From IMG/VR virus record IMGVR_UViG_2579778919_000011: a stretch of DNA of 14,300 bases; one strand, written 5' to 3'. This DNA comes from a virus. Lineage: Duplodnaviria > Heunggongvirae > Uroviricota > Caudoviricetes. The translations under genes were made by a program, and so were the position numbers. Below are positions 1,735 through 14,300 of this stretch, piece after piece (the stretch's first letter is position 1; each line of letters opens with the position of its first letter). A model generated the notes under the pieces. That model worked only from the letters and a program-made list of their open reading frames with translations, searched no databases and had not been told where the DNA came from.

Positions 1735-1777
1735 TGCCCACTCCATGTGATATCGATTGCAAAGAAAGTAAATCTGT

Positions 1778-1797
1778 AACTGTATTTATATACAGTT
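1778..1797 (-). promoter_or_regulatory. LexA (SOS) operator of dinD
   Basis: Plus strand reads AACTGTATTTATATACAGTT, containing the CTGT-N8-ACAG LexA consensus with an AT-rich spacer. It sits about 45 bp upstream of the dinD start, and a TATAAA -10-like element lies inside the box on the minus strand. Confidence 0.85.
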
Positions 1798-1889
1798 GTG
1801 AGTATCTCACGTTCTCAGTGTGCGGGGCAAAAAAACATCGCAAAATCTGGAGCAGGCACGCAAAACAGAATTGAAGTTGCGGGGAAGAA

Positions 1890-1920
1890 AAATGCCGCTC
1901 TGTTTGAGTGGGCGGCATTT
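1890..1920 (-). terminator. Inverted repeat AAATGCCGC-N13-GCGGCATTT; possible minus-strand terminator or boundary structure
   Basis: Perfect 9-bp arms at 1890-1898 and 1912-1920. On the minus strand the stem is followed by TTTTTCTT. It lies between the dinD promoter and the island; function unproven. Confidence 0.3.
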
Positions 1921-2190
1921 GTGAAGGCTGAAAAGTAAGAATTGGCGTTACGAGTTATTCAATGTTCTGAATCTGTTTATTGAGTAGGTGACTTAAAGCC
2001 GCGTGGTTGCTGTGTTTTTGATAATGCCTTTTTTCAATGGGTACACCCTTGTGTACACGGCATTTTAGAGTGCTCGCCTTTTGCGGTTACTTTTTGCGCT
2101 ATGCCGTTTAAAGCCGTCAGTTACTTAGTCCATTCCTCACCGCTTCTTATTGTATGATGGCGCTATCCCACAATAAGGAATCAGCCAGCC

Positions 2191-2550
2191 ATGAGAATGA
2201 CCAGCCGCAAAAAAGAGGTACTCAGTTACTTTGAGCCGGATAGCCTCGACTGGGTTACTGGTGAGATTGGTGCGCCGCCGTTCGATGTGTCGGGCGTGGC
2301 CTACCTTCTTCATGGCATGGCGTCGTTCGATAAGCGCCACCAGCTCGAATCAACCCGGCGAACTCTTGAAAGCATGGTTGCCGGGGGGCTACTGGAACGT
2401 GTGACAGTGTATGAATCGCGTCAGGTAAAGCGTGGCGGTGAAACTAACGCAACGGTCGTGCGCTACGGTTTACCCGGTCAATGTGCCGTTGTGCGCGATA
2501 ATGGCGGCGCTGATAACTCGATATCTGGTGAATATGAGCGGGTTGGCTAA
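2191..2550 (+). CDS. Hypothetical protein (119 aa); only plus-strand gene in the island, at its left edge
   Basis: ATG at 2191 with AAGGA about 11 nt upstream; TAA at 2548-2550. Composition resembles neighbouring island genes. No family recognised. It competes with a minus-strand ORF at 2137..2340. Confidence 0.45.
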   Translation: MRMTSRKKEVLSYFEPDSLDWVTGEIGAPPFDVSGVAYLLHGMASFDKRHQLESTRRTLESMVAGGLLERVTVYESRQVKRGGETNATVVRYGLPGQCAVVRDNGGADNSISGEYERVG

Positions 2551-2570
2551 CGCGATGATTCGCAGGGCGG

Positions 2571-2756
2571 CTATCTTCGCGGCGCTGGCTTCTTCCACTG
2601 GTAGGCGGGTGATCTCATCATTTCGCGGAACCTGTCGCGCCGCGCTGTATCGGCCTTAATCATGCGCTCCATCTCCCGAACCTCTACCGGAGTAAGCTGG
2701 TGGCCTTCATGCTCCAGCTTTGCGGCTGTCAGTGCGGCTATCTGCTGCGGTGTCAT
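2571..2756 (-). CDS. Hypothetical small protein (61 aa)
   Basis: ATG at 2754-2756 with a weak AGGG upstream; charged, Arg-rich sequence. It is co-oriented with the upstream island operon. Short ORF, weak support. Confidence 0.35.
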   Translation of the reverse strand: MTPQQIAALTAAKLEHEGHQLTPVEVREMERMIKADTARRDRFREMMRSPAYQWKKPAPRR

Positions 2757-2863
2757 GGTTAGCCCTGTTGCGTGGTTTTGAATGGTTGCTACACTACCGG
2801 GAAACGGAAATGCGCAGGGGTCTTGCTCGTGTTCACAAACGCCCCTTTGCGGGCGTTTTTCTT

Positions 2864-3475
2864 CTACGGAATCAGGCTAATGCCTCTGGCTGCTTTCCCC
2901 GTCTTACGCTCAATCACGCCCGTGATTCTGTCCACTACCGGGCTGAATGCCTGCCAGTAAACACTCTCATAGCGAACCAGCACCCCTACTTTTTTGTTGA
3001 ATGTATCCCAGCGCATTCCCTTCGGCTTCGGGAAGGAACAGGGATTGTTAGCTAAATTACGTGTCTGTTCGGTGTTTCCCCAGACGGCATAACGCTGACG
3101 GCGCATTTTCATTCGCATCCGGCCTAACCTGTCCTCGCTCTGGCTGGTGTAGTGAAGTTTCCAGCACGCCCGGCAGCCAATATCTTTTTTGCCAATATAC
3201 AGCTTTGCAGCCCGTTTCATACAGTGGGGGCAAACGTACCATTCCCGCACGCCATACCCGGCCTGTGTGGTTGTGGTGCGAATCGCCCGCGTCACGCCGT
3301 TGATTGTCATGGCGTAGCTGTCGGCTTGCCGGAAGGTATACAACGTTCCGCTTTCGGTCTGGGTATAAAGCTGCGTACCCGGTTCAGCATCCGCCAGCCT
3401 GCTACGCATGTGCGAAAGGAATGGCAACCCTATGCGGGGCAGGTCGGTGGTATAGCTGCGCGTTCTGTCTCTCAC
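2864..3475 (-). CDS. Hypothetical protein with C4 zinc ribbon (203 aa), GTG start
   Basis: GTG at 3473-3475 is preceded by AGGAGG at 7-nt spacing. The protein contains CPHC-N15-CRAC (CxxC...CxxC). No family confidently recognised. Confidence 0.65.
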   Translation of the reverse strand: MRDRTRSYTTDLPRIGLPFLSHMRSRLADAEPGTQLYTQTESGTLYTFRQADSYAMTINGVTRAIRTTTTQAGYGVREWYVCPHCMKRAAKLYIGKKDIGCRACWKLHYTSQSEDRLGRMRMKMRRQRYAVWGNTEQTRNLANNPCSFPKPKGMRWDTFNKKVGVLVRYESVYWQAFSPVVDRITGVIERKTGKAARGISLIP

Positions 3476-3499
3476 TGGCTGGCCTCCTGCGAATTACTG

Positions 3500-3715
3500 C
3501 GCATTAACTGCGAACGGTGCGCAAATTGAATACGAAATAATATGCGTATTTTACTGTAAATTGCGCACTATTTTGCGCACTGCGAACCAATGGCGCGAGC
3601 CAGAATATTTTGGACTGCCTAAATCGAATATGGCTTCCAGCCCGCTACTGGCGCGGTTCTCTCTTCATATGGGCTTTGAGTCTGTCCAGTACAGTCCAGT
3701 ATTTCAACATCGGTG
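3500..3715. repeat. Intergenic module copy A (diverged direct repeat of 4110-4315)
   Basis: The 3580-3656 core aligns to 4173-4250 at roughly 78 percent identity by hand alignment (about 17 differences over 78 positions). Both copies carry several CTGCG/TGCGCA motifs and a CTGT-N5-ACAG dyad, here at 3682-3694. Confidence 0.6.
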
Positions 3716-3728
3716 ACTATACGGATTG

Positions 3729-4106
3729 CTAACATGCGCCGTTTTTTTTAACCCTTCGCAGATCCCGCCTTGCTTGCATTGAAACGGATCTCGCTAAACT
3801 CAGCTCAAGCCGTGCGATTCTGTCGGCATGTAGCCCCATGAGTCCGTTAATCAATGTCATCTCGCGCCATTCTTCTGTTCCCGGCGTCGGATTAGTCGCC
3901 AGTAATAGCCCGTATCTCTCAGCCATCATGAGGTTTCTTGCACGATTTCGCACCAGCGGAGAAAGCGCATCTTCTCCCTCAAACGGGAAGAATACCCGCC
4001 TACTGCGTTCGCCATGTTTGACGGCATTAGTATTGCCCAACGGTGCGCCTGCGCCTTTCCGCTTGCCACCCCATCCCGATCTTGATTGTTGGCTATTTTT
4101 TTTCAT
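3729..4106 (-). CDS. Terminase small subunit-like protein (125 aa); candidate packaging-redirection factor
   Basis: ATG at 4104-4106. The N-terminus GGKRKGAGAPLGNTNAVKHG matches the G-x-G-A-P-x-G-N-x-N-A-x-K-H-G motif I associate with one class of phage small terminase subunits. The size is typical of TerS. Assignment is by motif only. Confidence 0.55.
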   Translation of the reverse strand: MKKNSQQSRSGWGGKRKGAGAPLGNTNAVKHGERSRRVFFPFEGEDALSPLVRNRARNLMMAERYGLLLATNPTPGTEEWREMTLINGLMGLHADRIARLELSLARSVSMQARRDLRRVKKNGAC

Positions 4107-4109
4107 TTA

Positions 4110-4315
4110 ACGGCTCACTGTGCGCAAAAACCCTAACTGAATGCGCGGTTTTGCTGCGTACCTGACTGCGTACTGCGTACCAGTGGCGCGAACCTGAATA
4201 TTCTGGACGGTCTAAATCACGCTCTGGCTTCCAGCCCTCTGCTGGCGCGGGTTTAGCGCTACGAGGGTTTAAAATCTGTCAAGAACAGTCTAGAATTTTA
4301 GCCTGCGTTCGGTGC
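4110..4315. repeat. Intergenic module copy B (diverged direct repeat of 3500-3715)
   Basis: See copy A. The CTGT-N5-ACAG dyad is at 4276-4288. This copy lies immediately upstream of the TerS-like gene. Confidence 0.6.
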
Positions 4316-4320
4316 GAACC

Positions 4321-4671
4321 TCACGGCACAGACGAGTACCAGTAAAAGCCTGTTAGCCCGGCATCGCAGCGCTCACGATTAAGCACGCGTGGCGGTTGCT
4401 CTCTGGTCATCAACTCCAGCGAAGCATTACCTCCCTGCGTCTCCAGGCGGTATTGCCTGTCGGTAGTGGTGATGGCATCAGGCAATAACTTTATGGCGGC
4501 CTGGCTAAAGTCTCGCGGCGCGCCGTAAAATTGCGCATCAATAATATGAACCACATCGCCGTTAATCGTTGTCCGATAACGATCTGGCTGTATTGTAAAG
4601 CCCCCACAATGGATAGCAGATAGTGCCGGTGCAGAGGAGATCAGGCAGGCTGCCAGAATGTATTGCTTCAT
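4321..4671 (-). CDS. Small exported protein (116 aa) with N-terminal signal peptide
   Basis: ATG at 4669-4671 overlaps the upstream stop (ATGA). The N-terminus MKQYILAACLISSAPALSA is n-region plus hydrophobic core plus AxA-like cleavage site. No family recognised. Confidence 0.6.
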   Translation of the reverse strand: MKQYILAACLISSAPALSAIHCGGFTIQPDRYRTTINGDVVHIIDAQFYGAPRDFSQAAIKLLPDAITTTDRQYRLETQGGNASLELMTREQPPRVLNRERCDAGLTGFYWYSSVP

Positions 4672-5309
4672 TCTTCACCCACCAATTCATCCAGTTCAGC
4701 CAGCGTCAGAGGCTTTGGTACAGGCTTGTCGATATCGCCCATAATGCGCTGGAAGTTTCTGGCGGGCATATGGTTACGGTTCTCCAGTATTTTCGCCAGC
4801 GCGATAACATCCCACCATTTCAGGGTAATCAGCGCCTGAGCGCGGGAAAGGGATATTCGCTGTATATCGGCGTCCTCCCCACCAGCTACCCGGTATACCT
4901 CGGATAAATCACGAACATTTTTCATATCTGCTTTCCCGGACGTTTCCATCAGTGCGTCAATATCATCCTCCGTATAGCGTGATTGCGCGACGATACCAGC
5001 CAGAGAGCTAACCATAGCCCGGCATACTTGGTCTATCAGACGTAATCTGGCGTCATCGTTCGAGAGGGTGTAAGACTTAACCTCAGCCACATTCCGTGGA
5101 TAGTTGGCGTGCCATACCGCGACGGCTCCACACTCATCAACATCGCCGCCAAGGTAGGTTTTTGCCACTCGGTTATTACCCGATAATGCAATTTCTACCC
5201 CCTGTATGCCGAAAAACCATGCGGCTATCGCATGACCTGCTTCGTGTATTGCGAGATGTCTGGGCCAGCGATAGCTGCCTAACTCGATAATGGTGGGTTG
5301 TGTACTCAT
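4668..5309 (-). CDS. HEAGH zinc metallopeptidase-like protein (FtsH/M41-like motif, no AAA+ module)
   Basis: The ATG at 5307-5309 (MSTQPT...) is preceded by AGAGGGAAGA and sits 10 nt after the SSB stop. The ORF-track start at 5366 would overlap SSB by 47 nt. The protein contains LAIHEAGHAIAAW, resembling the FtsH zinc-binding HEAGHA motif. Confidence 0.7.
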   Translation of the reverse strand: MSTQPTIIELGSYRWPRHLAIHEAGHAIAAWFFGIQGVEIALSGNNRVAKTYLGGDVDECGAVAVWHANYPRNVAEVKSYTLSNDDARLRLIDQVCRAMVSSLAGIVAQSRYTEDDIDALMETSGKADMKNVRDLSEVYRVAGGEDADIQRISLSRAQALITLKWWDVIALAKILENRNHMPARNFQRIMGDIDKPVPKPLTLAELDELVGEE

Positions 5310-5319
5310 ATCTTCCCTC

Positions 5320-5781
5320 TCAGAATGGATCTTCATCATCAAACGGCGGGCGCTGGTCAAAATCATCAGGGGTGTTATATAGCTCCCATCCCGGCGCGGG
5401 TTGCGTGGTATGGCCCCTGCTGGCTTCGCTTGCTTTGACTGACTCGGCCCGCTTCCCGCCGGGGCGTACCGTTCTGGCGCTGATCACGCTGTCGGCTACT
5501 ACCTGATACCCCTGCTGTGTACCGCCATCCTTGCCCGTCCACTGATTGACCTGCATCGCTCCGGCAACACTGACTAAATCGCCTTTAACGTGTCCTGCCA
5601 GTGCGTCGGCCTGTTTGCCGAATGCCACCACGCCCAGCCAGAAAGTAACCTCTCCGCCCTCTGCTGCATGGCAGGGCAGTGCCACCGCTAACCGTCCCAT
5701 TGCCATGCTTGTACCGCTTGCTGTGGTGCGGGTCTGGGGATCTGCCACCAGCCGCCCGTATGCTGATATCTGTGCTGTCAT
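5320..5781 (-). CDS. ssb: Single-stranded DNA-binding protein (153 aa)
   Basis: OB-fold-like pattern TFWLGVVAFGKQADALAGHVKGD...W...YQVV, and an acidic C-terminal tail ...PPFDDEDPF resembling the SSB DDDIPF tail. Its start overlaps the upstream stop (TAATG). Confidence 0.85.
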   Translation of the reverse strand: MTAQISAYGRLVADPQTRTTASGTSMAMGRLAVALPCHAAEGGEVTFWLGVVAFGKQADALAGHVKGDLVSVAGAMQVNQWTGKDGGTQQGYQVVADSVISARTVRPGGKRAESVKASEASRGHTTQPAPGWELYNTPDDFDQRPPFDDEDPF

Positions 5782-5966
5782 TAAGCGCCCTCCATTCTTG
5801 ATAACGTGTTGTCAATATTCCCGGCGGCTCGTTTCAGGTAGTCCATGCTGTCATTTAGCCGGGATAATTCGCCAGCCAGTAACAAGGCCGCCGCCTCCTG
5901 CGCGGTGAACCCCTGCGCTTCAATCTCTCTAATAACTTCGATCTGCTTTTTATGATGTTCGTTCAT
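5781..5966 (-). CDS. Hypothetical small protein (61 aa), first gene of the SSB operon
   Basis: The ATG at 5964-5966 (MNEHHKKQIEVIR...) has AAGGG 7 nt upstream. The ORF-track start at 5990 has a G-run directly abutting the ATG, which is poor spacing. Confidence 0.5.
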   Translation of the reverse strand: MNEHHKKQIEVIREIEAQGFTAQEAAALLLAGELSRLNDSMDYLKRAAGNIDNTLSRMEGA

Positions 5967-6019
5967 TTTTTCGCCCTTTAGCTGAATCATACCCCCCCCT
6001 GTAAATCTTTTTTGGGGTG

Positions 6020-6275
6020 TAATATCCCTACCAAACCCTACTAATCGATGAAACCCAGATATGGCGCGGCTTTCAGGCTAGTAGGGAATTGTTTTTCTTA
6101 CCCTACATAACCCTACTTATCCCTACTAAATCACTTCAACGGCATTTTACTGCCTGTTTTATTTGGTAGGGATATGTAGGGATAAGTAGGGATAAGTATA
6201 TATATCCCTACCAGTCTACAAACCCCGTCATTACTGGCCTTAAATGACTTTGTAGGGATAGGTAGGGATAAATCA
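6020..6275. repeat. Iteron array; putative island origin of replication
   Basis: Five direct GTAGGGATA copies at 6166, 6176, 6186, 6252 and 6262, the first three and last two at exact 10-bp spacing. Three inverted TATCCCTAC copies at 6023, 6118 and 6203, plus partial copies (CCCTAC at 6101 and 6111, GTAGGGAA at 6081). An AT-rich GTATATATAT lies at 6196-6205. The array is immediately 3' of the primase-helicase gene. Confidence 0.75.
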
Positions 6276-6283
6276 GGGGTAAA

Positions 6284-8728
6284 CTATTCTTCGCCCCCTT
6301 CGGCGGTGCTGCTGCCATATGCTCGCGGTATAAACTCCTCAGCCATCTCGTTATAGCCCACGTTGGTTTGCGCTCTGCCGTTAATGCTTCGCGTCAGGTA
6401 GCTGGCTCGGTACTCTTTTGCTGCTGATTTTATGGCGCGTGAAAACTTATTGACGGAAAGCGGTTTACCCAGCCCGTGATACTCCATAAACGCCAGGTAA
6501 AGATGATAAAGATACGCCCTCGGCTCTGGCTGGCCTGCCCATGTACCTCCGCCCATCATCATGCCTTTGGGTTCGTTCATGAAAAAAAGTGCCGCACACA
6601 TATCGATAACCGGATCTGTGCCGCGTTTAACGTCTAGCGCCTCCTGAGAATCGCGCTGCTCAAGTAACAGTGCCTTTGCTTTGTTCTGGTCGGAAAAGGT
6701 GGTTAGCAGGTGGCGGATAATCACCGGGATTTCTCGCCTGATTTTTGCGGTTAAATCCGGGTCTTTGTCTGCGTCTGATACCGGGTTATTAAACGGGAAT
6801 ATCACGCGGCGGCGGGCAATGCCCCCGTTTCGCTCCGTGAATGTCATCGGCTCGTTATTGGTTGCCATAACAACGGCATTTATCACGGTTGTGAACTGCT
6901 TTTCATATTTCCCATCAATCTCTACCGGATCGCCGCCCGTAATGGCTTTAATCCCCGCACCCTCTCCAACGTAGCGGGTCTGGTCAGGCATAATAATCAG
7001 GCTTTTCCCTACGAACTGCGCCCGTCCCCGTGCGGTGTCCAGCGTCATCATGCTACCGCTGGCGGTGTTGTGTTCACCTGCCAGCGTGGTTGCTATGCTG
7101 CTGAATACGGATTTCCCACTGCCGCCCTCGCCAGTTATCTCAATGAATAGCTGCCAGTCGTGACGCTTCGCCAGCACCATAAACAAGGCTGCTTTGATAC
7201 GCTCGGCCTTATGATGGTCGCCAGCCGTTGCATGATTCAGCCAACGGGTAAAATTGGGGGCGCTGGTGGAAATATTCTCCCCCGGCGCTGGCGGGGTGTA
7301 GGTGATCCCATTGTGGTTCATCAGCCAGTTACCCGGCGAATGGGCGGAAAACGTCTGCGTAGCGAGGTCATAAACGCCGTTATCAAAACCAATCAGATCC
7401 CCGCTCCGCTCACCAATTACCGGTATTTGCAGCTTCATGGTTGCGACAACCGATTTAATCCCTTTTTCGGTGTAGTGGGCTTCGTGCTCGTCGAAAATTG
7501 CCACCATAACCCTTTCTAATTCGCTGTCTGGTAGCTTCACCCATACGCCAGATTCGTAGCAGTAAACAGCGCCACTATCAGGGTTGACCGCCAACATATC
7601 CCAGCGAGATGAAAGCAACCGCGCTTTCTGGCTGGCTGCCATTTGTGCAATATCTCCGACTTCGGCTTTACGGCGGGATTTACCGCCCACAATGGCCTGT
7701 AGTTGTGGTTTCACGGCTTCCCCCTGAATCTGGTACATCGAATCGTTAAACGCAGCCGTAGCGACTTCCAGCCCGTTTTGCTGGCGGTAGTCGTCCCAGT
7801 CGGCTTTGTAGTCTGTCGGCGGCAGCGCCACCCAGCCAGCCACGGATAAGGCGGCTTTCTCTGCGGCCTCCCTGCCTGTATTGGCTTCTCCGTTTTGGTG
7901 GTGGTCGTTGTCTGCGGCGATAATAATTTGCGCCTTCGGGTGTTTCCGGCGCATTACTCCGGCAACGGGTAGCAGGTTGCCCGCGTCAATTGCTGCCACT
8001 GCCAGCGCGTCCGGGCGCATCAGGTGAACTGACAGAGCGGTAGCCAGCCCCTCGGCAATCACGACGCTTTGAGGCCGTTCCAGCGCGTTTACGGCGTAAT
8101 ATGCCCCGCGCTTTGCTGAACCTGTCAGAAGTCGCTTTTCTCCCTGCGGGGTGATGGTCTGCGCGGCTGTGACTGCGCCGGATTCATCCACCAGCTCCAG
8201 CAATAACGAACCATCGGGCATTAGCGGGTAATTGAACCCGGTCAGCCCTTTTGATTGCAGGTAATCAGATTCGCCCTGTGTGACGTTCTGGCGCATTCCG
8301 GCATACAGACGGGTAAACGTTGCCCTTCGCTGCTCTGCGTCCTCTGCTGCCTGTTGCTGGCGCTCCTGCTCACGCTGCTGGCGGTCAGCCTCCAGTTGCT
8401 CCCTTCTCTGGCTCGCTGCCGTCTGGTCGGTTTGTGCTGCCCGGTAATCAATACCCAGCACATCAGCGGCAAGGTGCGCCGCCTCCGTGGTGTCGCAGTT
8501 GTTAACCCGCTTGATTAAATCCAGCCCGTCGCCCGCGCCGCACTGATTGCAGATAAAGCTGCCGCGCCCGTTGTCGTCGAACCGGAAGCGATCCGTACCG
8601 CCACATGCAGGGCAGGGGGCATGGCGGCGTGATGAATCAGGCACGTCGATAGACAGGCCAGCCAGCACATAAGGCCAGTTACCAGCGGCGGCGGTGGTCA
8701 CTTCGCGGATAAAGTCGATATTACGCAT
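6284..8728 (-). CDS. Primase-helicase (P4 alpha-like / Pri-Rep), 814 aa
   Basis: N-terminal zinc ribbon CPACGG...CNQCG; Toprim-like motifs VVIAEGLATALS and IIIAADNDHH; Walker A GEGGSGKS in the C-terminal NTPase domain. GAGGGAG lies 7 nt upstream of the ATG at 8726-8728. Confidence 0.9.
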   Translation of the reverse strand: MRNIDFIREVTTAAAGNWPYVLAGLSIDVPDSSRRHAPCPACGGTDRFRFDDNGRGSFICNQCGAGDGLDLIKRVNNCDTTEAAHLAADVLGIDYRAAQTDQTAASQRREQLEADRQQREQERQQQAAEDAEQRRATFTRLYAGMRQNVTQGESDYLQSKGLTGFNYPLMPDGSLLLELVDESGAVTAAQTITPQGEKRLLTGSAKRGAYYAVNALERPQSVVIAEGLATALSVHLMRPDALAVAAIDAGNLLPVAGVMRRKHPKAQIIIAADNDHHQNGEANTGREAAEKAALSVAGWVALPPTDYKADWDDYRQQNGLEVATAAFNDSMYQIQGEAVKPQLQAIVGGKSRRKAEVGDIAQMAASQKARLLSSRWDMLAVNPDSGAVYCYESGVWVKLPDSELERVMVAIFDEHEAHYTEKGIKSVVATMKLQIPVIGERSGDLIGFDNGVYDLATQTFSAHSPGNWLMNHNGITYTPPAPGENISTSAPNFTRWLNHATAGDHHKAERIKAALFMVLAKRHDWQLFIEITGEGGSGKSVFSSIATTLAGEHNTASGSMMTLDTARGRAQFVGKSLIIMPDQTRYVGEGAGIKAITGGDPVEIDGKYEKQFTTVINAVVMATNNEPMTFTERNGGIARRRVIFPFNNPVSDADKDPDLTAKIRREIPVIIRHLLTTFSDQNKAKALLLEQRDSQEALDVKRGTDPVIDMCAALFFMNEPKGMMMGGGTWAGQPEPRAYLYHLYLAFMEYHGLGKPLSVNKFSRAIKSAAKEYRASYLTRSINGRAQTNVGYNEMAEEFIPRAYGSSTAEGGEE

Positions 8729-8740
8729 TGTGTCGCTCCC

Positions 8741-9331
8741 TCAGTGCGCCGCTGGCATTTCAGGCCAGCCGTTTTCATTCAGATCAGCAATGAAGTGATC
8801 GTGTAGCTCTGCCAGCGTTTCACGCCCGAACGGGGTTAACTCTCCGCGCTCCGCATCCAGCATGGCGCGGTAGAACACAATGGCGTTTTCCGTACCCTGT
8901 TCGACGCCGTATCGCTCAATCATTGCGCCCTCGATGTTGTTCGCCATCGCCAGCCGTTCAGCAAACGGGTAAATCACCATGCCCGCATTACCATTGGAGT
9001 AAATCGCCACCTGCGATGTTGTGCCGTCAGCCTCCGTGACGGAGGTTGTGCCGTTTTCGCGCTTCATTTCAGAAACGAACTTCGCAGCAATCAGCCAGCG
9101 CCACATAGTGACGTTATGCTGCGCGGTAAAGTCGAACCAGCCACGCGCCCCGCCATCAGCAACGGCAAAATGAATGGCGTAGCCGATATCGGGCGTATCG
9201 TCGTACTCTCCCGCATCCAGACGGCTTACAGCGCTCTCATAGGTGATAATGGCTACATGCTCATACATCCCGGCATCGTTGCGGGTCATGATATTGACGC
9301 CGTGCGGCGTTGCCTCTGCGTGATAGCTCAT
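8741..9331 (-). CDS. Hypothetical protein (196 aa), co-operonic with primase
   Basis: ATG at 9329-9331 overlaps the upstream stop (ATGA); the stop is 12 nt before the primase start. Acidic protein, no family recognised. Confidence 0.65.
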   Translation of the reverse strand: MSYHAEATPHGVNIMTRNDAGMYEHVAIITYESAVSRLDAGEYDDTPDIGYAIHFAVADGGARGWFDFTAQHNVTMWRWLIAAKFVSEMKRENGTTSVTEADGTTSQVAIYSNGNAGMVIYPFAERLAMANNIEGAMIERYGVEQGTENAIVFYRAMLDAERGELTPFGRETLAELHDHFIADLNENGWPEMPAAH

Positions 9332-9549
9332 GACTTGCCCTCCCGATATTCACGCATCACATAGTCAGCTAGCTTGCTTTCGGCTTCTTCCATTGCCTCC
9401 GGGACGCCATGCAGCAAAGTGAGGATTGAACCGATAAGACGCGGAAGGTCGGGGCTAGTGTCTTTGGTGGTGCTCTCCAGCCACATGGATAAAACAGCCT
9501 GTGCCTGTTCAATCTGACAGGTGGCATCAATCAGTTGTAACTGGCTCAT
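9328..9549 (-). CDS. Hypothetical small protein (73 aa)
   Basis: ATG at 9547-9549 overlaps the stop of the Icd-like ORF (ATGA). Translationally coupled position within the operon. Confidence 0.55.
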   Translation of the reverse strand: MSQLQLIDATCQIEQAQAVLSMWLESTTKDTSPDLPRLIGSILTLLHGVPEAMEEAESKLADYVMREYREGKS

Positions 9550-9734
9550 GCTGCCACCTCCAGACGGATACGGCCTGCAAAGAAACAGACGTGATCCCGC
9601 GCCAGCGTGCGGCGAGCTTCGCGCTCAGTTTCAGCAGCAATGTGATGGATTTTGGCGGTAATTGTCGGCATATCGCGGCGAACTGCTGCGATAATCCAGA
9701 TAAATTGCGGTTTTTGGGTAGGGGTAGTAGCCAT
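9546..9734 (-). CDS. Icd-like small protein (62 aa; host cell division inhibitor-like)
   Basis: The ATG at 9732-9734 is preceded by AGGAGG at 7-nt spacing. The sequence MATTPTQKPQFIWIIAAVRR...EREARRTLARDHVCFFAGRIRLE fits my recollection of Icd-like proteins in P4-type islands. The 249-aa ORF in the track is an upstream read-through of this gene. Confidence 0.6.
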   Translation of the reverse strand: MATTPTQKPQFIWIIAAVRRDMPTITAKIHHIAAETEREARRTLARDHVCFFAGRIRLEVAA

Positions 9735-9761
9735 TATGGCAGCCTCCTTTGTGTTTAAGGA

Positions 9762-9800
9762 GTCACCGCCTGATGTGCAAATATCATGATTGGCGGTGAC
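9762..9800 (-). promoter_or_regulatory. Perfect 9-bp inverted repeat GTCACCGCC-N21-GGCGGTGAC upstream of the Icd-like gene
   Basis: Arms at 9762-9770 and 9792-9800. The spacer contains the palindrome ATCATGAT. It lies 28 nt upstream of the Icd-like start and could be an operator or an RNA stem-loop in the 5' leader. Confidence 0.4.
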
Positions 9801-9923
9801 GTTAGCAGGGTTTGCACTACCGGACACAAAGGAAACCGGCCTACGCGAACGTAGCCCCACTAACGCCACCATTGATACAGTACGGGTAAGTCCGCTGATT
9901 TGATGTGCGTAGTGAATGGACAC

Positions 9924-9946
9924 AAAAAAAGACGCTTTCGGCGTCT
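9924..9946 (-). terminator. Rho-independent terminator (minus strand)
   Basis: Minus strand reads A-GACGC-CGAAA-GCGTC-TTTTTTT: a GC-rich 5-6 bp stem, 5-nt loop and a T7 tract. It is in the non-coding region between the 60-aa ORF and the Icd-like gene. Confidence 0.5.
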
Positions 9947-10005
9947 GTGTCGCCCTTAGTGTGTTCGGGGTGCAAATCCCGGTTGCTGATTTTGCAGCAA
10001 CGCTT
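9924..10005 (-). ncRNA. Candidate small structured RNA ending at the terminator (possible C4/CI-like immunity RNA)
   Basis: Between a weak TATAGT-like -10 (around 10010-10016 on the minus strand) and the terminator, the minus strand can form three hairpins: GTTGCTG-N6-CAGCAAC (9982-10001), CGGG-N8-CCCG (about 9966-9981) and the terminator stem. The predicted length of about 80 nt and the position upstream of an icd-like gene match the P1 c4 / P4 CI arrangement. Inference only. Confidence 0.25.
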
Positions 10006-10233
10006 GGACTATAACAGCTTTTCTCTGCTAGGTGGTCATACCAGATAAAACCGTAACCCTTTAAGAGTTTTTCCTGTGCACGGCTCACCATCTTTTTGTT
10101 GAGGGTAAGCGCCTCGCGTACTGGTAACGGAACTCCGGGCGCTGCGGTATCAATATCAGGTTTTGTAAGGTTGCAGATGTCAACTTTTGACAACATGCCA
10201 GCCAGATTAAAGGCTTCTTTCTGGGCGGCAGGT

Positions 10234-10416
10234 TCATTCAGTATCACGGCGCACCTCCACGAACTCATTAACGAATCTCTCCAAAGGCTGAACACATGGC
10301 GACTGATAGCCCTCGCGGTAAAAGGTCACTCGGTTATGCTCGACGCGCTGTACGGTCACTACAGCCCCGTGCGAATCCTTGTAACGGCTTCCCGGCATCG
10401 GATTGTGGTTACGCAT
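10234..10416 (-). CDS. Hypothetical small protein (60 aa)
   Basis: The ATG at 10414-10416 has GGAGG at 6-nt spacing, embedded in the 3' end of the antirepressor gene (8-nt overlap). Sequence MRNHNPMPGSRYKDSHGAVVTVQRVEHNRVTFYREGY.... Confidence 0.6.
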   Translation of the reverse strand: MRNHNPMPGSRYKDSHGAVVTVQRVEHNRVTFYREGYQSPCVQPLERFVNEFVEVRRDTE

Positions 10417-11242
10417 GGTTTACCTCCAGACGTTTAGCGAGCCAGCGTTGCGACAGGCGGGTGAGTTCTCCTTTGCGCTGCTCATATTCCATGCCCATAT
10501 CAATTAACGTGATATTGGTGCTTTCGAGATAGGCGAGGTGTTCAAGCTGTGCTGCGTTCATGCTGTCCCGTGGTTCGCCAGTAATGCCATTTGCCTGCGC
10601 CCACTGCTTCGCCGTCATGCCACCCAGCACGATACGGGCGATCATGTTGCTCTCGTTGCTGTAGTGGCGCTGCTGCGTCGTTTTACCCAGCTCGGCACGG
10701 GCCATATTCAGCGCATCGCACATCGGCTTAAAGTTGTTTGCGGCACTGATACGGGCTTTTAGCTGGCGACGATAGCGGGCGGCGATTTCAGGCACGCTAC
10801 GCTGTAATTCTTCCTCGCACTGGATGAAATAACGGCGGATAGCGCGGCCCTGTTCGGTGCGTTCGATCATTGCCAGTTCTTTCGCCATTCCGACACTTAA
10901 CAGATAGTCTTTGCCGGGTCTGCCAGACTGTTTAATCTTGCTGTAAGCCGTGCCATTCGGGCTTTTCCCCAGATTTGGGGAAATTGTTTTATGGACTGAG
11001 TAATCGTGCCCAATGGTGAAGTCATATTCAGAGATGCGATCAGTGATCCATGTAGAGAAGTCTTTTCCCACGCCCAACGCTTTGTGTAACGCTTTTGCGC
11101 TAACAATATTGGTTTCACGCCCACCGATATGACCAGGAATAACCGGGACAATTGCGGCAAATTCATTACCGTTAATTGTGCCCTGATAGGCGTTCAGATG
11201 AGGGGCGGCCTCAGAAATTAATCTGCTTTTTTCGATGTTCAT
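10409..11242 (-). CDS. Phage antirepressor, AntA-domain protein (277 aa)
   Basis: The N-terminal region AKALHKALGVGKDFSTWITDRISEYDFTIGHDY...LSVGMAKELAMIERTEQGRAIRRYFIQCEE matches the AntA/AntB antirepressor domain signature (DFSTWI, MAKELAM, RRYFI). GGAG lies 9 nt upstream of the ATG at 11240-11242. Confidence 0.75.
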   Translation of the reverse strand: MNIEKSRLISEAAPHLNAYQGTINGNEFAAIVPVIPGHIGGRETNIVSAKALHKALGVGKDFSTWITDRISEYDFTIGHDYSVHKTISPNLGKSPNGTAYSKIKQSGRPGKDYLLSVGMAKELAMIERTEQGRAIRRYFIQCEEELQRSVPEIAARYRRQLKARISAANNFKPMCDALNMARAELGKTTQQRHYSNESNMIARIVLGGMTAKQWAQANGITGEPRDSMNAAQLEHLAYLESTNITLIDMGMEYEQRKGELTRLSQRWLAKRLEVNHA

Positions 11243-11254
11243 TTTCAGTCTCCG

Positions 11255-11689
11255 TTAGGCGGCGGTGAGATTGTCCGGGTATAGGTTGAGAATGTCGGCA
11301 ATTTCAGGCTGAGAAAGTCCCTGATAGCCGCCAGCGTCGGCGTTATGGTTCACAAGCCGAATAACTTTTAGAACGTCACCGCGCCCGGTAAAGCGATAGC
11401 GTAAATGTGACCCTATCCCGTCGGGGTTCTTTTCGTCTATACGCTCAAGCTGAATATCAAGCCTGCGCTCTAACTCGCTGGCGTAGTTCCTTCCAGATGA
11501 AAGGCGGCAATATCGCAGAATGTCGTTTTCTGTCCATCCCTCTACGCCAGTACGCAGCATATAGACGCGGGCGCGGTGTTTCTTTGGGGTTCGCTTAGGT
11601 ACTTGTACCGGGCTGGTGGTCGGCGTAATATCAGACGTGCGAATATCTGAGTTAGCCGCCTGCTGTACGGGGCGGTTTTTCTTTTTCAT
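11255..11689 (-). CDS. Hypothetical protein (144 aa), basic N-terminus
   Basis: ATG at 11687-11689 overlaps the alpA stop (TAATG). Lys/Arg/Pro-rich N-terminal region; no family recognised. Confidence 0.65.
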   Translation of the reverse strand: MKKKNRPVQQAANSDIRTSDITPTTSPVQVPKRTPKKHRARVYMLRTGVEGWTENDILRYCRLSSGRNYASELERRLDIQLERIDEKNPDGIGSHLRYRFTGRGDVLKVIRLVNHNADAGGYQGLSQPEIADILNLYPDNLTAA

Positions 11690-11892
11690 TACGCCACCTT
11701 TCCCCGGCGCTCCGCCAGCCAGTTGTGAATATCAGCCGCATCAAAGGCGGTAATCTTCTCGCCCAGCTTTACCGGACGTGGTAGTGAACCGTTTCTTACT
11801 TTACGGTCGATGGTGGATACACTAACGCCCAGCAATTCAGCCAGGCGAAAGCGTCTGATATAGCCTTTTGTAGGGATAGTGTCGATGTTCAT
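11689..11892 (-). CDS. alpA: AlpA-family phage transcriptional regulator (67 aa)
   Basis: RFRLAELLGVSVSTIDRKVRNGSLPRPVKLGEKITAFDAADIHNWL matches the AlpA/excisionase-like helix-turn-helix pattern. It sits in the typical position near the integrase. Confidence 0.85.
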   Translation of the reverse strand: MNIDTIPTKGYIRRFRLAELLGVSVSTIDRKVRNGSLPRPVKLGEKITAFDAADIHNWLAERRGKVA

Positions 11893-11896
11893 GATT

Positions 11897-11935
11897 CCCG
11901 TAACCTCTTAGCGATAGTTGTTGCTTCGTTACGGG
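11897..11935 (-). promoter_or_regulatory. Inverted repeat CCCGTAAC-N23-GTTACGGG immediately upstream of the alpA start
   Basis: 8-bp arms at 11897-11904 and 11928-11935. On the minus strand the structure encloses the alpA ribosome-binding region (GAGG), so it is a candidate operator or RBS-sequestering hairpin. Confidence 0.35.
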
Positions 11936-11986
11936 TATTTAATGGCAAATTCAGTAGTCAATGTTCCAAATTTAAAATGGTCAGTT

Positions 11987-12940
11987 TCAAATTTTGAAGT
12001 ATTTCTCAATGGTTGCAGAGGAAGGCATACCCATGCCGGCGAGCTTGCCTTCTCTCTGCTTATCCTCCAGAAATTTTATTAGAATTTCATAGCGTTTATT
12101 GGGATTTGCGGTTATTACATCTTCACCCAGCTCAGGTACGCATCGGATTAGCATTTCAATAAACTCACCAACCTTATTGCTGTTCACTGTTGGCGCTATT
12201 TGCTTTTGCTCGCTGGGTTCTGGCGGGATGGTAACGCCTCCGTTAATCATGCTTTTCATTGGCTCGCCTGTGTCTATTGCGTCTTTTAGTTTTAAGATGG
12301 TATCTCTGGCAATAAATAGATCGGAGATTGTCAAAGTCTCATTAAGCGCAGGTTTTCGGCTCTCACTTAACTGAAACCCTATGCTTTCGGCTAGTTGTCT
12401 GTTTAGCGTCGGTAGCCAGCTCTGATTAAAATATCTATCGCTAATTATATGACACGAAAGGCCAGTCTTCTCGCGGAAAGTATCCCATCCGAACGGCCTG
12501 AAAATTGTCGTATCTATCACCCTTGCCCTCTCAGAATAAAGGAGGCTTTCTATTTCACCATGTCCCAGACACCATAGCCCATGCGCCAATCCCCTAAATA
12601 AAATAAACCCACCATCTGTTTTGTATACGTCATGCTCGGTGAGAAAGGAATTAAAATGAGATACATAGTTGCTATCACGAAAAAGAAATGATGAGTTTAC
12701 TTTGTGTTCGTTATAAAACTCAATTGGATCTTGAATGTCTTGGCCGCCTACAAAAACCAGCGCAGAACAGAAATACCTCATCATTACACATAAGGGGATC
12801 GCACCAATAACACCATAGTGAAGTAAATCATCTGTATCACATTGTAAAATACTAGCTGCCCTGTCGAGCTTAAAGTATTCCATAGGTGGGATTTTAATAC
12901 TGCTGTGGGCTTCTTTTTTGGTCATCGCGTCACCTTTCAC
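11987..12940 (-). CDS. AT-rich cargo protein of unknown function (317 aa; alternative ATG start at 12925)
   Basis: Long ORF between int and alpA. Hand-counted GC of three 60-nt blocks is about 28-43 percent, against about 70 percent in one block of the primase gene. AAGG lies upstream of the GTG at 12938-12940, and the ATG at 12923-12925 also has an SD-like AAAGGTGA. No catalytic motif recognised. Confidence 0.7.
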   Translation of the reverse strand: MKGDAMTKKEAHSSIKIPPMEYFKLDRAASILQCDTDDLLHYGVIGAIPLCVMMRYFCSALVFVGGQDIQDPIEFYNEHKVNSSFLFRDSNYVSHFNSFLTEHDVYKTDGGFILFRGLAHGLWCLGHGEIESLLYSERARVIDTTIFRPFGWDTFREKTGLSCHIISDRYFNQSWLPTLNRQLAESIGFQLSESRKPALNETLTISDLFIARDTILKLKDAIDTGEPMKSMINGGVTIPPEPSEQKQIAPTVNSNKVGEFIEMLIRCVPELGEDVITANPNKRYEILIKFLEDKQREGKLAGMGMPSSATIEKYFKI

Positions 12941-13040
12941 GCTGTGCCTTAAAGAGTGATTGAGCCAGGCGGTAAGGCTTCCCGCTTTTCGCCCCGTCGG
13001 GCTAGGCTCAATCTGTCCTCTGATTCTTTACATATCTTGG

Positions 13041-14300
13041 TTACTTCGCCTTTCTCAGCGGTGTAACGTTGTATTCTTCGCCGCGTTCCAGTGCCACCAG
13101 CAAGCCCGCCCACTGTGTTAACGCAGCCCGGCGTTCATCAAAGTATTGGTGGCGGTTATAGATACCCTCCACGCCTTTAATTTTGTGGTTAAGGCATCTT
13201 TCTGCGACTACCGGATCAACGCCCAGCGCGGCTAAATGGGTGCGGGCCGTGCGCCGGAAGTCGTGAATGGTGAAGTTCGGCACGTCCGGCATTTCAGCGC
13301 GAACCTTCGCCAGCGCAACGGGCAGGGTGCTTTCCTGAATATGGGGGATCATGCGGTTTTGCATCTTTCTGGCTGGCAGTACCCATGCGCTGTTGCATGA
13401 GAACGTTTTAAGCTCTCTCAGCCATTCGACGGCTGGCGGTGCTAATGGGATGTCTATAGCGTCGCCGTTTTTGCTGCGTTCCTCTGGCAAGCGCCATACG
13501 GCTTTATCAAAATCGAACTCCTCCCAGCGGGCGGCGCATAACTCCATTTTGCGGACGCATAACGCTAACAGTAATTTGAACGTGATTTCGTTCTGGCGAC
13601 TGAATCCCTTAGCCGTGCGCATGGCTTTGAATAGCTGGATTAACTCATCGCGGGTTAACCAGCGGTCACGGGCAACTTCTTTCCCTCCGGCGTCTGCCAC
13701 CTCAAAGGCTGAACATGGGTTAATCTCCAGCGCGTGCCGTTTGATTCCGTAGTCGAATATGCGGCGCGTCCATCTCAGCACGTCCGTTGCTATGGTCGGC
13801 GCTCCACGGTCAACAATACCTTTCAGCATGTCATCGATATGGCGCGGTTTCACGTCCTCTACCTTCATGCTGCCAATGCAGGGGTTTATATCTTTGTCGA
13901 TACGGCGGCGGAGTATATCGGGGTGCTTCCAGCGCGGGAGGATCTGACGCTCAAAGTATTCAGCGGCAAGCTCTGAAACGCGCATGGCGTTCTTCTCTGC
14001 TTCCATCTTCGCCAGTGCTTCGGCTTTCCGTTCCTGCTTCTCTCCCGCGACGTCATAACCCAGCGCAACACGCGCCGATAGCTCTTTGGCTGTCTCTCTG
14101 GCCTTTGATAGTGATAGCTCGGCATATGAGCCAATCAGCATGGCGCGGGGTTTCCCTGCGAATTTATAGCGGAATCGCCAGACGGGGGTCTGGTAGTTTT
14201 CGCGGTATGAAAGATAAAGCCCGTTACCGTCAGAGCGTCCCTCGAATCGCTCCCCGGCCTTTATCCATGCGCGGATCTGCATGTCTGTGAGTTTTGGCAT
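13041..14300 (-). CDS. int: Tyrosine recombinase / integrase, P4-family (419 aa)
   Basis: The N-terminus MPKLTDMQIRAWIKAGERF...DGNGLYL resembles the arm-binding domain of P4-type integrases. C-terminal catalytic residues are present: HDFRRTARTH (HxxR) and GIYNRHQY (catalytic Tyr). The ATG is the last three bases of the window, so the promoter is outside it. Confidence 0.9.
   Translation of the reverse strand: MPKLTDMQIRAWIKAGERFEGRSDGNGLYLSYRENYQTPVWRFRYKFAGKPRAMLIGSYAELSLSKARETAKELSARVALGYDVAGEKQERKAEALAKMEAEKNAMRVSELAAEYFERQILPRWKHPDILRRRIDKDINPCIGSMKVEDVKPRHIDDMLKGIVDRGAPTIATDVLRWTRRIFDYGIKRHALEINPCSAFEVADAGGKEVARDRWLTRDELIQLFKAMRTAKGFSRQNEITFKLLLALCVRKMELCAARWEEFDFDKAVWRLPEERSKNGDAIDIPLAPPAVEWLRELKTFSCNSAWVLPARKMQNRMIPHIQESTLPVALAKVRAEMPDVPNFTIHDFRRTARTHLAALGVDPVVAERCLNHKIKGVEGIYNRHQYFDERRAALTQWAGLLVALERGEEYNVTPLRKAK

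Follow-up and report, generated by a model that had tools for sequence, protein, structure and literature searches.

The window, the whole 14,300-nt stretch of viral DNA that was analysed, contains an RNA repressor module on its minus strand, placed before a small toxic-protein gene and the DNA-replication genes of an integrative island. The host of the island is most likely E. coli. The features of the module and its surroundings are given below in the direction of transcription.

11892-10234, minus strand: upstream co-directional operon, assigned by Pfam matches, with the same gene order in E. coli relatives
11892-11689, minus strand: alpA
11689-11255, minus strand: 144-aa ORF
11242-10409, minus strand: AntA antirepressor
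10416-10234, minus strand: DUF4222 gene
10247-9546, minus strand: eta-like long ORF, 233 aa, from GTG 10247, with Shine-Dalgarno GGAGG at 10258-10254, 6 nt before the GTG
10016-10008, minus strand: putative internal constitutive promoter, extended -10 TGTTATAGT, no good -35
10001-9925, minus strand: IsrK/SeqA-like leader RNA, 77 nt
9976-9970, minus strand: target site a1, UUUGCAC
9964-9953, minus strand: degenerate target site b1, ACACA-CU-AAGGG
9946-9923, minus strand: Rho-independent terminator of the leader, AGACGC-CGAAA-GCGUCU (9946-9930; 6-bp stem, 5-nt loop), then U7 (9929-9923)
9876-9789, minus strand: C4/CI-type antisense RNA
9800-9762, minus strand: alternative hairpin with a perfect 9-bp repeat
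9754-9743, minus strand: target site b2, ACACAAAGGA at 9754-9745, overlapping the Shine-Dalgarno AAGGAGG (9749-9743) of the next ORF
9734-9546, minus strand: Icd/Kil-like ORF, 62 aa, from ATG 9734
9728-9651, minus strand: candidate Rho-utilisation site
9549-6284, minus strand: controlled operon, all ORFs intact and tightly overlapping
9549-9328, minus strand: 73-aa ORF, ATGA overlap with the Icd stop
9331-8741, minus strand: 196-aa ORF, ATGA overlap
8728-6284, minus strand: P4-family primase-helicase (Zn-ribbon, Toprim, D5_N/DUF5906, Pox_D5; phrog_2249 at 1.5e-148)

The C4-like RNA lies between the leader terminator and the Icd-like start. It matches the Rfam C4 model (RF01695) over its full length, 1-87, with 80.8 bits against a threshold of 45. 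The preliminary description had proposed an RNA switch of the P1 C4 or P4 CI type ahead of an icd-like ORF and a primase operon, and had named this model as a check; the check is positive and the central idea is right. The 88-nt element consists of two hairpins within a long basal stem, its minimum-energy fold is that of the model (-39.3 kcal/mol, z = -4.71), and among 70 distinct homologues 97.9% of cells are paired, with compensatory changes in 23 of the 27 pairs. The b' segment (UCCUUUGUGU, 9833-9824) occupies a 12-nt loop and a' (GUGCAAA, 9817-9811) the junction, while the 3' end reads ...CACCGCCAAU and includes CCA. RNAs of the C4 class are processed from a longer transcript by RNase P, carry a 3' CCA, and act as immunity repressors.

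Upstream of C4, the leader RNA matches the Rfam isrK family (RF01394, 73 bits, threshold 50), and the c4-a1b1 motif (RF03163) is matched at 10014-9962 with 49.3 bits against a threshold of 46.7. The leader comprises hairpin 1 (10001-9982), hairpin 2 (9981-9966), whose loop displays a1, and the terminator hairpin, which also falls within the isrK match; it folds at -23.1 kcal/mol (z = -3.0). Both the hairpin with its T7 tract and the two hairpins upstream of it had been noticed from the letters, as had the high structure of this strand, which is borne out by a 311-nt stretch that folds far better than its shuffles (z = -4.77). A small RNA had been expected at 9920-10010. There is indeed a candidate RNA unit there, but it is the a1b1 leader, and the C4 RNA is the separate element downstream. 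The leader is identified as IsrK/SeqA by the model match, a predicted -10 of its own six nt upstream, and the terminator, which is the sole terminator-like site on the minus strand within 5900-13100. The isrK, c4-a1b1 and C4 trio occurs in the same order in P4, P1, D6, an Stx phage, and E. coli relatives, and the equivalence of IsrK with SeqA and of C4 with CI is stated in the literature (PMC3632133; PMC4825925).

The promoter is assigned from positional homology to P51b of P1 and from conservation. A simple sigma-70 consensus scan calls no promoter in 9400-10500 and passes over 10016-10008 because its -35 is poor. The extended -10 (TG) makes up for the missing -35. TATAGT lies 6 nt before hairpin 1, a spacing identical to that of the -10 of the annotated P1 promoter P1c4, and the site sits where PLE of P4 and P51b of P1 sit. 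Across 111 distinct loci, the consensus at this place is tTGgc-18-TAtagT.

The two single-stranded segments of C4 have partners on both sides of the RNA. Upstream, a1 is an exact 7-nt complement to a'. Site b1, recognised by eye, consists of two short complementary blocks around a 2-nt bulge, and a search for a good b1 site returned only this interrupted match, with a b1-b' duplex energy no better than that of shuffles; the longest exact upstream complement to b' found by script is 6 nt and lies elsewhere, about 199 nt before C4. Downstream, the alternative hairpin pairs the 3' strand of the C4 basal stem (GUCACCGCC, 9800-9792) with GGCGGUGAC (9770-9762) at -18.6 kcal/mol (z = -4.86), which confirms the perfect inverted repeat reported before the Icd-like start and matches the seqC region of P4. 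Its loop displays a2 (UUUGCAC, 9781-9775), complementary to a' over 7 of 7 nt. Site b2 is an exact complement of the b' loop over 10 of 10 nt, and none of 500 shuffles reaches the duplex energy of -20.2 kcal/mol. In other loci, the end of b2 mostly falls 9-10 nt before the start codon.

These complementarities co-vary among 97 specificity-variant loci from other genomes. An upstream complement to a' (a1) of at least 7 nt is present in 98% of the variant loci compared with 3.7% of non-cognate pairs, and the corresponding values for a2 are 98% and 1.6%. Complements of at least 7 nt to b' are found in 72% (b1) and 79% (b2) of loci against about 5% of non-cognate pairs. The arms of the inverted repeat likewise change together: 66% of cognate and 14% of non-cognate pairs match over 7 nt or more. 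Relative to a sibling E. coli island with 99.3% identity just upstream, a1, a', and a2 have been swapped together. This joint swap between near-identical islands is a natural experiment that supports the pairing model.

The Icd/Kil-like ORF is the first in the replication operon and lies nested, in frame, inside the long ORF. It matches NCBIfam NF033153 (phage_ICD_like) with 74.2 bits against a cut-off of 25, resembles P1 Icd and the last 65 aa of the former P4 'cI protein' ORF, and is predicted to be a member of the cell-division inhibitor family. Variation by codon position is 0.89/0.84/1.29, a third-position excess that also appears in the differences from locus L001, so the ORF is under purifying selection. 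A composition scan of 10300-8700 places the peak of high C and low G in the transcript (33% C, 15% G) at the start of the ORF, which is suggestive of a Rho-utilisation site exposed once translation of the Icd-like ORF is blocked. A P4-type primase follows C4 in 18 of 21 Icd-type loci.

The idea that the module is a decaying remnant of a P4-like ancestor that now regulates nothing in the island could draw on the degenerate b1, the promoter without a -35, and the lack of P4 capsid-hijacking proteins among the ORFs scanned. It is nonetheless improbable, as a1, a', and a2 have changed together and still match perfectly, the Icd-like ORF bears the signature of purifying selection, the extended -10 offsets the missing -35, and the operon ORFs are all intact and overlapping.

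The long ORF corresponds to eta of P4, with kil, the Icd-like ORF, nested within it. It begins with a 14-nt overlap of the DUF4222 stop, and its frame takes in the promoter, both RNA genes (IsrK and C4), and the Icd-like ORF. The preliminary description dismissed a 249-aa version of this ORF as spurious, with a strong ribosome-binding site only for the last 62 codons and the rest non-coding. Neither point survives: GGAGG precedes GTG 10247, the start that PGAP (the NCBI annotation pipeline) uses in E. coli relatives, and the frame is kept open through the RNA genes in relatives. It is open in 20 of 24 loci, compared with 4% and 12-17% for the other frames, and across relatives the spacing between the IsrK loop and C4 varies only in steps of 3 nt. 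GTG 10247 is preferred over ATG 10268 as the start because the latter is lost in L145. A 50-aa ORF directly after the DUF4222 stop (10237-10085) was also considered as a real gene filling the gap and was rejected, as it contains stops in L004, L142, L143, and L145.

What is conserved in the eta-like ORF is openness only, to the exclusion of amino-acid sequence. Several mutually unrelated N-terminal segments occur, and every one is open. Pfam Phage_ASH matches with 73 bits, exactly where the RNA stretch is translated (residues 95-195 of the 249-aa ORF). This match, the CDS calls of PGAP in relatives, and the conserved frame could mean that a genuine Ash/Bro-network protein is the functional product and that the RNA-model matches are secondary. 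That explanation is highly improbable. The C4 stretch has no codon periodicity (0.53/0.63/0.56), in contrast to the third-position excess of the Icd-like ORF, and the compensatory double changes in its base pairs alter the peptide. Moreover, those 'peptide' motifs that are conserved fall on the conserved RNA hairpin, U-tract, and C4 stems, and the N-terminal segments of sibling islands are unrelated.

The arrangement is closely paralleled in P4, whose immunity region reads PLE - seqA - CI RNA - seqC - kil nested in eta - epsilon/orf151 - alpha primase. P4 matches the same Rfam families (isrK at 8692-8615, C4 at 8507-8420), places its promoter at the same spot, and has a long in-frame ORF, coupled to the upstream gene, that spans the RNA genes, with a P4-family primase downstream. 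The two Kil/Icd-like ORFs (65 aa in P4, 62 aa in this island) both start 54 nt after C4. The two differ in specificity (P4 b' UAUCCUGUGAAG, a' AUUCUCAC), in the gap from IsrK to C4 (48 nt here, 107 nt in P4), in the degenerate b1, and in the -35-less promoter with its extended -10. Here DUF4222, lying behind AntA, is the gene to which the eta-like ORF is coupled, whereas P4 eta is coupled directly to the alpA homologue. The mechanism of eta, kil, and CI in P4 is described in PMC10111431, which summarises P4 work showing that translation of eta lets transcripts from an upstream promoter escape immunity.

The ImmI region of P1 and P7 (c4 antisense RNA - icd - ant) is a second parallel. The annotated P1 elements (promoter, a1, b1, c4, a2, b2, and icd) each have one counterpart in the window; P1 has a terminator-like hairpin with UUUUUGUGUCC, its b2 lies over the icd ribosome-binding site as here, and its Icd is homologous to the Icd-like protein. 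In P1, icd translation is blocked, with polarity on the next gene. The a' and b' sequences of P1 differ from those here, and its leader scores 35 bits, below the isrK threshold. Control in P1 falls on the antirepressor ant and here on the primase operon, with an AntA-type antirepressor upstream of the module.

The best explanation is that the region governs immunity and replication of a P4-related integrative island, with a resting and an induced mode (probability about 0.8). This explanation draws on the observed RNA identities, on complementarities that co-vary, on frame conservation, and on gene order; C4 processing, repression, Rho dependence, and bypass by translation are carried over by analogy with P4 and P1. 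In the resting mode, the weak constitutive promoter within the long ORF would start transcripts at about 10001, most of which would end at the intrinsic terminator as the 77-nt IsrK/SeqA-like RNA. Read-through transcripts would be processed to a C4/CI RNA of roughly 80 nt, whose a' and b' would pair with a2 and b2 on the same or new transcripts and cover the ribosome-binding site of the Icd/Kil-like ORF. The untranslated C-rich start of the ORF, left bare, would invite Rho termination, and neither the toxic Icd/Kil-like protein nor the two small ORFs or the primase would be made. Pairing of C4 with a1 in the leader might also strengthen early termination and set the level of free C4.

In the induced mode, transcription would enter from the upstream alpA-antA-DUF4222 operon, for which a search found no convincing promoter. 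Ribosomes coupled from DUF4222 would translate the eta-like ORF, passing the terminator, C4, and the target sites on the way. Their passage would keep the structures and Rho from acting, and the replication genes would therefore be expressed despite immunity.

The sign of regulation cannot be read from homology alone, because the homologous IsrK of Salmonella Gifsy-1 activates its downstream genes. Gifsy-1 (IsrK - orf45 (STnc1160) - anrP) shares the IsrK-family leader with its own promoter, the leaky terminator, and a processed stable downstream RNA complementary to IsrK. It differs in that IsrK is a trans activator of orf45-anrP translation, the antirepressor is downstream, and no Icd/Kil-primase operon follows. 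On this model, the long read-through transcript would be translationally silent, with its leader paired to the C4 region, a short IsrK-like RNA would open it in trans and switch on translation of the Icd-like ORF and the genes after it, and the region would mainly trigger induction rather than keep immunity. The strong isrK match and the experimental demonstration of IsrK activation in Gifsy-1 speak for such an ON switch, as does the minimum-energy fold of the 311-nt leader, which pairs the a1/b1 stretch with the C4 loop region, like the inactive 'structure A' of Gifsy-1. It is unlikely all the same: the Gifsy-1 module precedes an antirepressor, while here and in P4 Kil/Icd and then the primase follow, and a2/b2 over the ribosome-binding site together with strict C4 co-variation fit a repressor role for C4 like that in P1 and P4. 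Only for Gifsy-1 is IsrK known to bind Hfq and to activate the read-through mRNA in trans. The ON-switch and repression modes are not mutually exclusive.

Beyond the module, the integrase, alpA, and alpha (primase) are all in the window. The other window ORFs scanned, of at least about 60 aa, gave no Pfam or PHROGs match to psu, delta, sid, or epsilon, which sets the island apart from P4; within that scan, the island falls outside the P4-like satellites as defined by Moura de Sousa & Rocha (PMC8628076). A search for defence genes elsewhere in the island gave nothing apart from a DinD/Bro-N protein matching PADLOC PDC-S13. Gram-negative and helper-embedded PICIs with C4/isrK matches inside Bro-network genes are described in general terms by Mageeney et al. 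2023 (PMC10111431). These PICIs share the layout of integrase, alpA, a Bro zone (AntA, Phage_ASH), and primase/SSB, and their Bro gene contains homologues of CI and seqA; the window differs from them in that no capsid or late genes are seen in it. The text consulted from that paper treats neither the present island nor its specificity.

The module is of a well-known phage and satellite kind, so the find is correct but ordinary, and the known picture of P4 and P1 RNA immunity is unchanged. Its value is in annotation and in specificity. Pipelines label the region only 'Icd-like' or 'ash family'; it can now be read as two regulatory RNAs, four target sites, and a nested ORF pair. What Pfam groups as Phage_ASH corresponds to the IsrK and C4 genes in translated form, and the PHROG label 'transcriptional repressor' may stem from the obsolete P4 'cI protein' annotation. 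The a1/a'/a2 swap hints at heteroimmunity as a selective force among co-resident satellites. A more tentative proposal, which we consider possible though not probable, is that the AntA operon (alpA-orf144-AntA-DUF4222) is translationally coupled into the eta-like ORF, along which ribosomes have to traverse both RNA genes, such that one signal both attacks the helper repressor and overrides immunity, and that specificity is a two-key (a, b) code that reassorts between islands, with a recent swap of the a key only relative to the sibling island. If so, a single upstream induction signal would both hit the helper prophage repressor and start replication of the island.

An Rfam scan of the whole window at curated thresholds returns three matches in the flagged region (9735-10233): a C4 antisense RNA, an isrK RNA and a c4-a1b1 target motif, all on the minus strand, which also carries every gene in this part of the window. 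The preliminary description proposed running the C4 model on this region, and the above-threshold C4 match (80.8 bits against 45) makes that test positive. In the P1 record, the annotated order is promoter P1c4, a1, b1, c4, a2, b2 and icd, with b2 covering the ribosome-binding site of icd; each of these elements has a counterpart in the window. Here a' and b' are the recognition elements of C4, and a1/b1 and a2/b2 are the target sites upstream and downstream of it. The putative -10 is of the extended type because TGT precedes TATAGT.

Features of the minus strand in transcript order (window coordinates)
14300-13041 (-), integrase, first in order
Between integrase and alpA (-), 317-aa ORF
11892-11689 (-), alpA
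Between alpA and AntA antirepressor (-), 144-aa ORF
11242-10409 (-), AntA-family antirepressor
10416-10234 (-), DUF4222 protein, directly before the flagged region
10014-9962 (-), c4-a1b1 target motif, Rfam 49.3 bits (threshold 46.7)
10013-10008 (-), -10 TATAGT, 6 nt 5' of hairpin 1, as in P1
10001-9925 (-), isrK RNA, Rfam 73 bits (threshold 50)
9976-9970 (-), a1 UUUGCAC, in the loop of hairpin 2
9964-9953 (-), b1 ACACA-CU-AAGGG, interrupted
9946-9923 (-), terminator, stem 9946-9930 and U7 9929-9923
9876-9789 (-), C4 antisense RNA, Rfam 80.8 bits (threshold 45)
9833-9824 (-), C4 b' UCCUUUGUGU, within a 12-nt loop
9817-9811 (-), C4 a' GUGCAAA, at a junction
9781-9775 (-), a2 UUUGCAC
9754-9745 (-), b2 ACACAAAGGA, overlapping the Shine-Dalgarno AAGGAGG (9749-9743)
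9734 (-), AUG of the Icd-like ORF
9734-9546 (-), Icd-like ORF, 62 aa, directly after the flagged region
9549-9328 (-), 73-aa ORF, ATGA overlap with the Icd-like ORF
9331-8741 (-), 196-aa ORF, ATGA overlap with the 73-aa ORF
8728-6284 (-), P4-family primase-helicase, after the 196-aa ORF

The structures first noticed in this region are borne out. The fold of a 311-nt stretch is much more stable than those of its shuffles (z = -4.77), the terminator (a 6-bp stem followed by U7) is the sole terminator-like site on the minus strand within 5900-13100, and the additional pair of hairpins corresponds to hairpins 1 and 2 of the IsrK-like leader RNA. The perfect 9-bp inverted repeat is also present (9800-9792 with 9770-9762; -18.6 kcal/mol, z = -4.86). 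The candidate small RNA placed at 9920-10010, however, is this leader rather than C4. The 88-nt C4 fold (z = -4.71), which lies after the terminator and before the Icd-like start, had not been singled out. Because the 9-bp repeat joins the 3' strand of the C4 basal stem to a segment just past a2, its hairpin is predicted to be an alternative to the C4 fold, showing a2 in its loop. The b'/b2 duplex (-20.2 kcal/mol) is reached by none of 500 shuffles, and the b'/b1 duplex energy is no better than chance. The global fold also pairs the leader with the C4 loop, which is compatible with the main rival to repression by C4: the logic of Salmonella Gifsy-1, in which the short IsrK RNA serves as an activator of the read-through mRNA. 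Such activation need not exclude a C4 repression mode.

Pairing of C4 with its targets can be followed across loci. Exact-pattern scans for the conserved leader hairpin 1 yield 15 viral and 120 genomic loci, and a covariance model based on six C4 sequences and run on these loci places a C4 element shortly downstream of the hairpin in most of them. Across 70 distinct sequences, 97.9% of cells in the C4 fold are paired, with compensatory changes in 23 of 27 pairs. Among 97 usable variants, exact complements to a' of 7 nt or more lie on the upstream side in 98% and on the downstream side likewise in 98% (3.7% and 1.6% for the non-cognate control pairs); for b' the figures are 72% and 79%, respectively (about 5% non-cognate). 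The end of b2 mostly lies 9-10 nt 5' of the next start codon in the compared loci, and the alternative hairpin co-varies (at least 7 nt in 66% of cognate versus 14% of non-cognate pairs). The 123 C4 matches hold 100 different a'/b' combinations. The two types reassort freely, 86 b' loops and 52 a' junctions making up these combinations (loci L007-L141), and many b' types are common to different a' types and vice versa.

The closest relative, an E. coli 30COLEC sibling island (L001), is 99.3% identical to the window over 10420-10000. Within 10060-9735, most differences form three clusters, which are a1, a' and a2; these are altered jointly, from UUUGCAC/GUGCAAA in the window to GUGGAAA/UUUCCAC, while b' and b2 are identical. 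This concerted change is a natural compensatory experiment and the most telling case in the comparison. The two islands diverge strongly 3' of the Icd-like ORF. Given the upstream identity, the exchanged a1/a'/a2 and this divergence, the immunity region (window 9735-10060, compared with L001 6400-6720) is a mosaic junction.

The element also varies in copy number and host. Two C4 copies lie about 0.7-0.8 kb apart in two Pseudomonas loci, L028 (2285-2371, 3012-3100) and L090 (2162-2248, 2964-3050), and in phage D6 (L003) an additional, weak C4-like match at 2553-2632 precedes the main C4. A leader hairpin with a downstream C4 also occurs in Acidobacteriota bins, which may be contaminated (Bryobacterales MAGs L033 and L049, Acidobacteriota MAG L077); this extends beyond the Proteobacteria and phages cited for this family. 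Loci from a Desulfovibrionaceae bin and Novispirillum have the leader-hairpin pattern and gave no C4 match.

The 249-aa ORF spanning these RNAs, at first dismissed as spurious, has a frame maintained in relatives and its own start (GGAGG at 10258-10254, 6 nt, GTG at 10247; 14-nt overlap with the DUF4222 stop). In 20 of 24 loci that have an Icd-like ORF following C4, the Icd-phase frame runs at least 118 codons upstream without a stop (other frames, 4% and 12-17%), and three of the four exceptions retain a long open frame with a one-base shift near the Icd start. IsrK loop-to-C4 distances (119, 122, 134, 152, 179) are equal modulo 3, with 123 the sole exception; in non-Icd loci all three phases are mixed. 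Four more E. coli islands have IsrK-to-C4 start-to-start distances of 101, 101, 125 and 140, in phase with the window (125) and P4 (185), and several unrelated N-terminal segments of unequal length, all open. From IsrK to C4 a frame is open in every Icd-type locus, against 22% predicted from shuffles. Position-wise variation shows no third-position excess over C4 (0.53/0.63/0.56) and does show one in the Icd-like ORF (0.89/0.84/1.29), and the conserved "peptide" motifs of the long ORF are the conserved RNA hairpin, U-tract and C4 stems. The frame, then, is kept open, and the peptide that it encodes is not the object of selection. In relatives, PGAP annotates this ORF as "Icd-like" or "ash family". 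Pfam Phage_ASH (PF10554) covers residues 95-195 in the window (9711-10013, -); both there and in four E. coli relatives its match is exactly the translated IsrK and C4 genes. Because the residues conserved in this family fall on conserved RNA elements, the family may largely be a reflection of conservation at the RNA level within a frame held open. A 50-aa ORF right after the DUF4222 stop (TGAATG; 10085-10237, -) is not a gene, since stops interrupt it in four relatives.

An open frame without peptide selection fits P4 eta. According to Forti et al. (1999), as summarised in PMC10111431, P4 kil nests inside eta, and a constitutive promoter within eta gives an early-terminating transcript that yields CI. 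Only transcripts from a late promoter further upstream reportedly lead to translation of full-length eta, which is coupled to the alpA homologue and whose translation blocks termination. The P4 record (L006) still annotates, at 8168-8584, an obsolete 137-aa CDS named "cI gene product / transcriptional repressor", which spans the C4 RNA and Kil; its C-terminus is a 65-aa Kil/Icd-like sequence homologous to the window ORF. The Icd-like ORF (9546-9734, -) matches PHROG families labelled "transcriptional repressor", a label that may be inherited from this outdated annotation.

The most likely mechanism has two states. At rest, transcription from the internal promoter would give the IsrK/SeqA-like RNA, and read-through and processing would yield C4. 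Pairing of C4 with a2 and b2 would block Icd/Kil-like translation and thereby open to Rho the beginning of this ORF, which is rich in C and poor in G, with the primase operon silent; C4-a1 pairing would add leader control. In a composition scan, 9728-9651 (33% C, 15% G) is the extreme of the transcript. Upon induction, upstream alpA-AntA-DUF4222 transcripts translated through the eta-like ORF would escape both terminator and C4. The sequences themselves show what the RNAs are, how they complement their targets and co-vary with them, that the frame is conserved and how the genes are ordered, whereas C4 processing, repression, the role of Rho and the bypass are proposed by analogy with P4 and P1.

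The window belongs to E. coli or something very closely related: its left flank is matched in 5425 of 5426 E. coli genomes, and strain S43 matches the island at 94% across 88% of the island's length. A Bro-N domain protein (910-1746, -), annotated as dinD in S43 and matching PADLOC candidate defence family PDC-S13 (2.4e-124), adjoins a chromosomal gene of the glycine-transporter family (1-672), which probably puts the far end of the island between about 1750 and 2900. An int-alpA RNA (Rfam RF02996; 12946-13012, -; 64.9 bits against 35.8), also in L001, follows the integrase and precedes the 317-aa ORF, and so is not immediately 5' of alpA. An SSB-like protein (5320-5781, -), below the NCBIfam cut-off (49.9 against 53.95) and clear in Pfam and PHROGs, lies 3' of the primase among several ORFs without a family match (1709-5366).

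The equivalences IsrK = SeqA and C4 = CI are stated in the literature (PMC3632133, PMC4825925), and C4 and isrK matches within Bro-network genes of Gram-negative phage-inducible chromosomal islands are reported in PMC10111431. Compared with P4, the window has a different a'/b' specificity, a shorter IsrK-C4 gap and a b1 that is degenerate; its promoter lacks a -35 and has an extended -10, and its eta-like ORF is coupled to DUF4222 behind an AntA antirepressor. A P4-type primase lies downstream in 18 of 21 Icd-type loci. Since psu, delta, sid and epsilon were not detected among the window ORFs scanned, the island falls outside the gene-set definition of a P4-like satellite, yet it shares the immunity and replication operon of P4.
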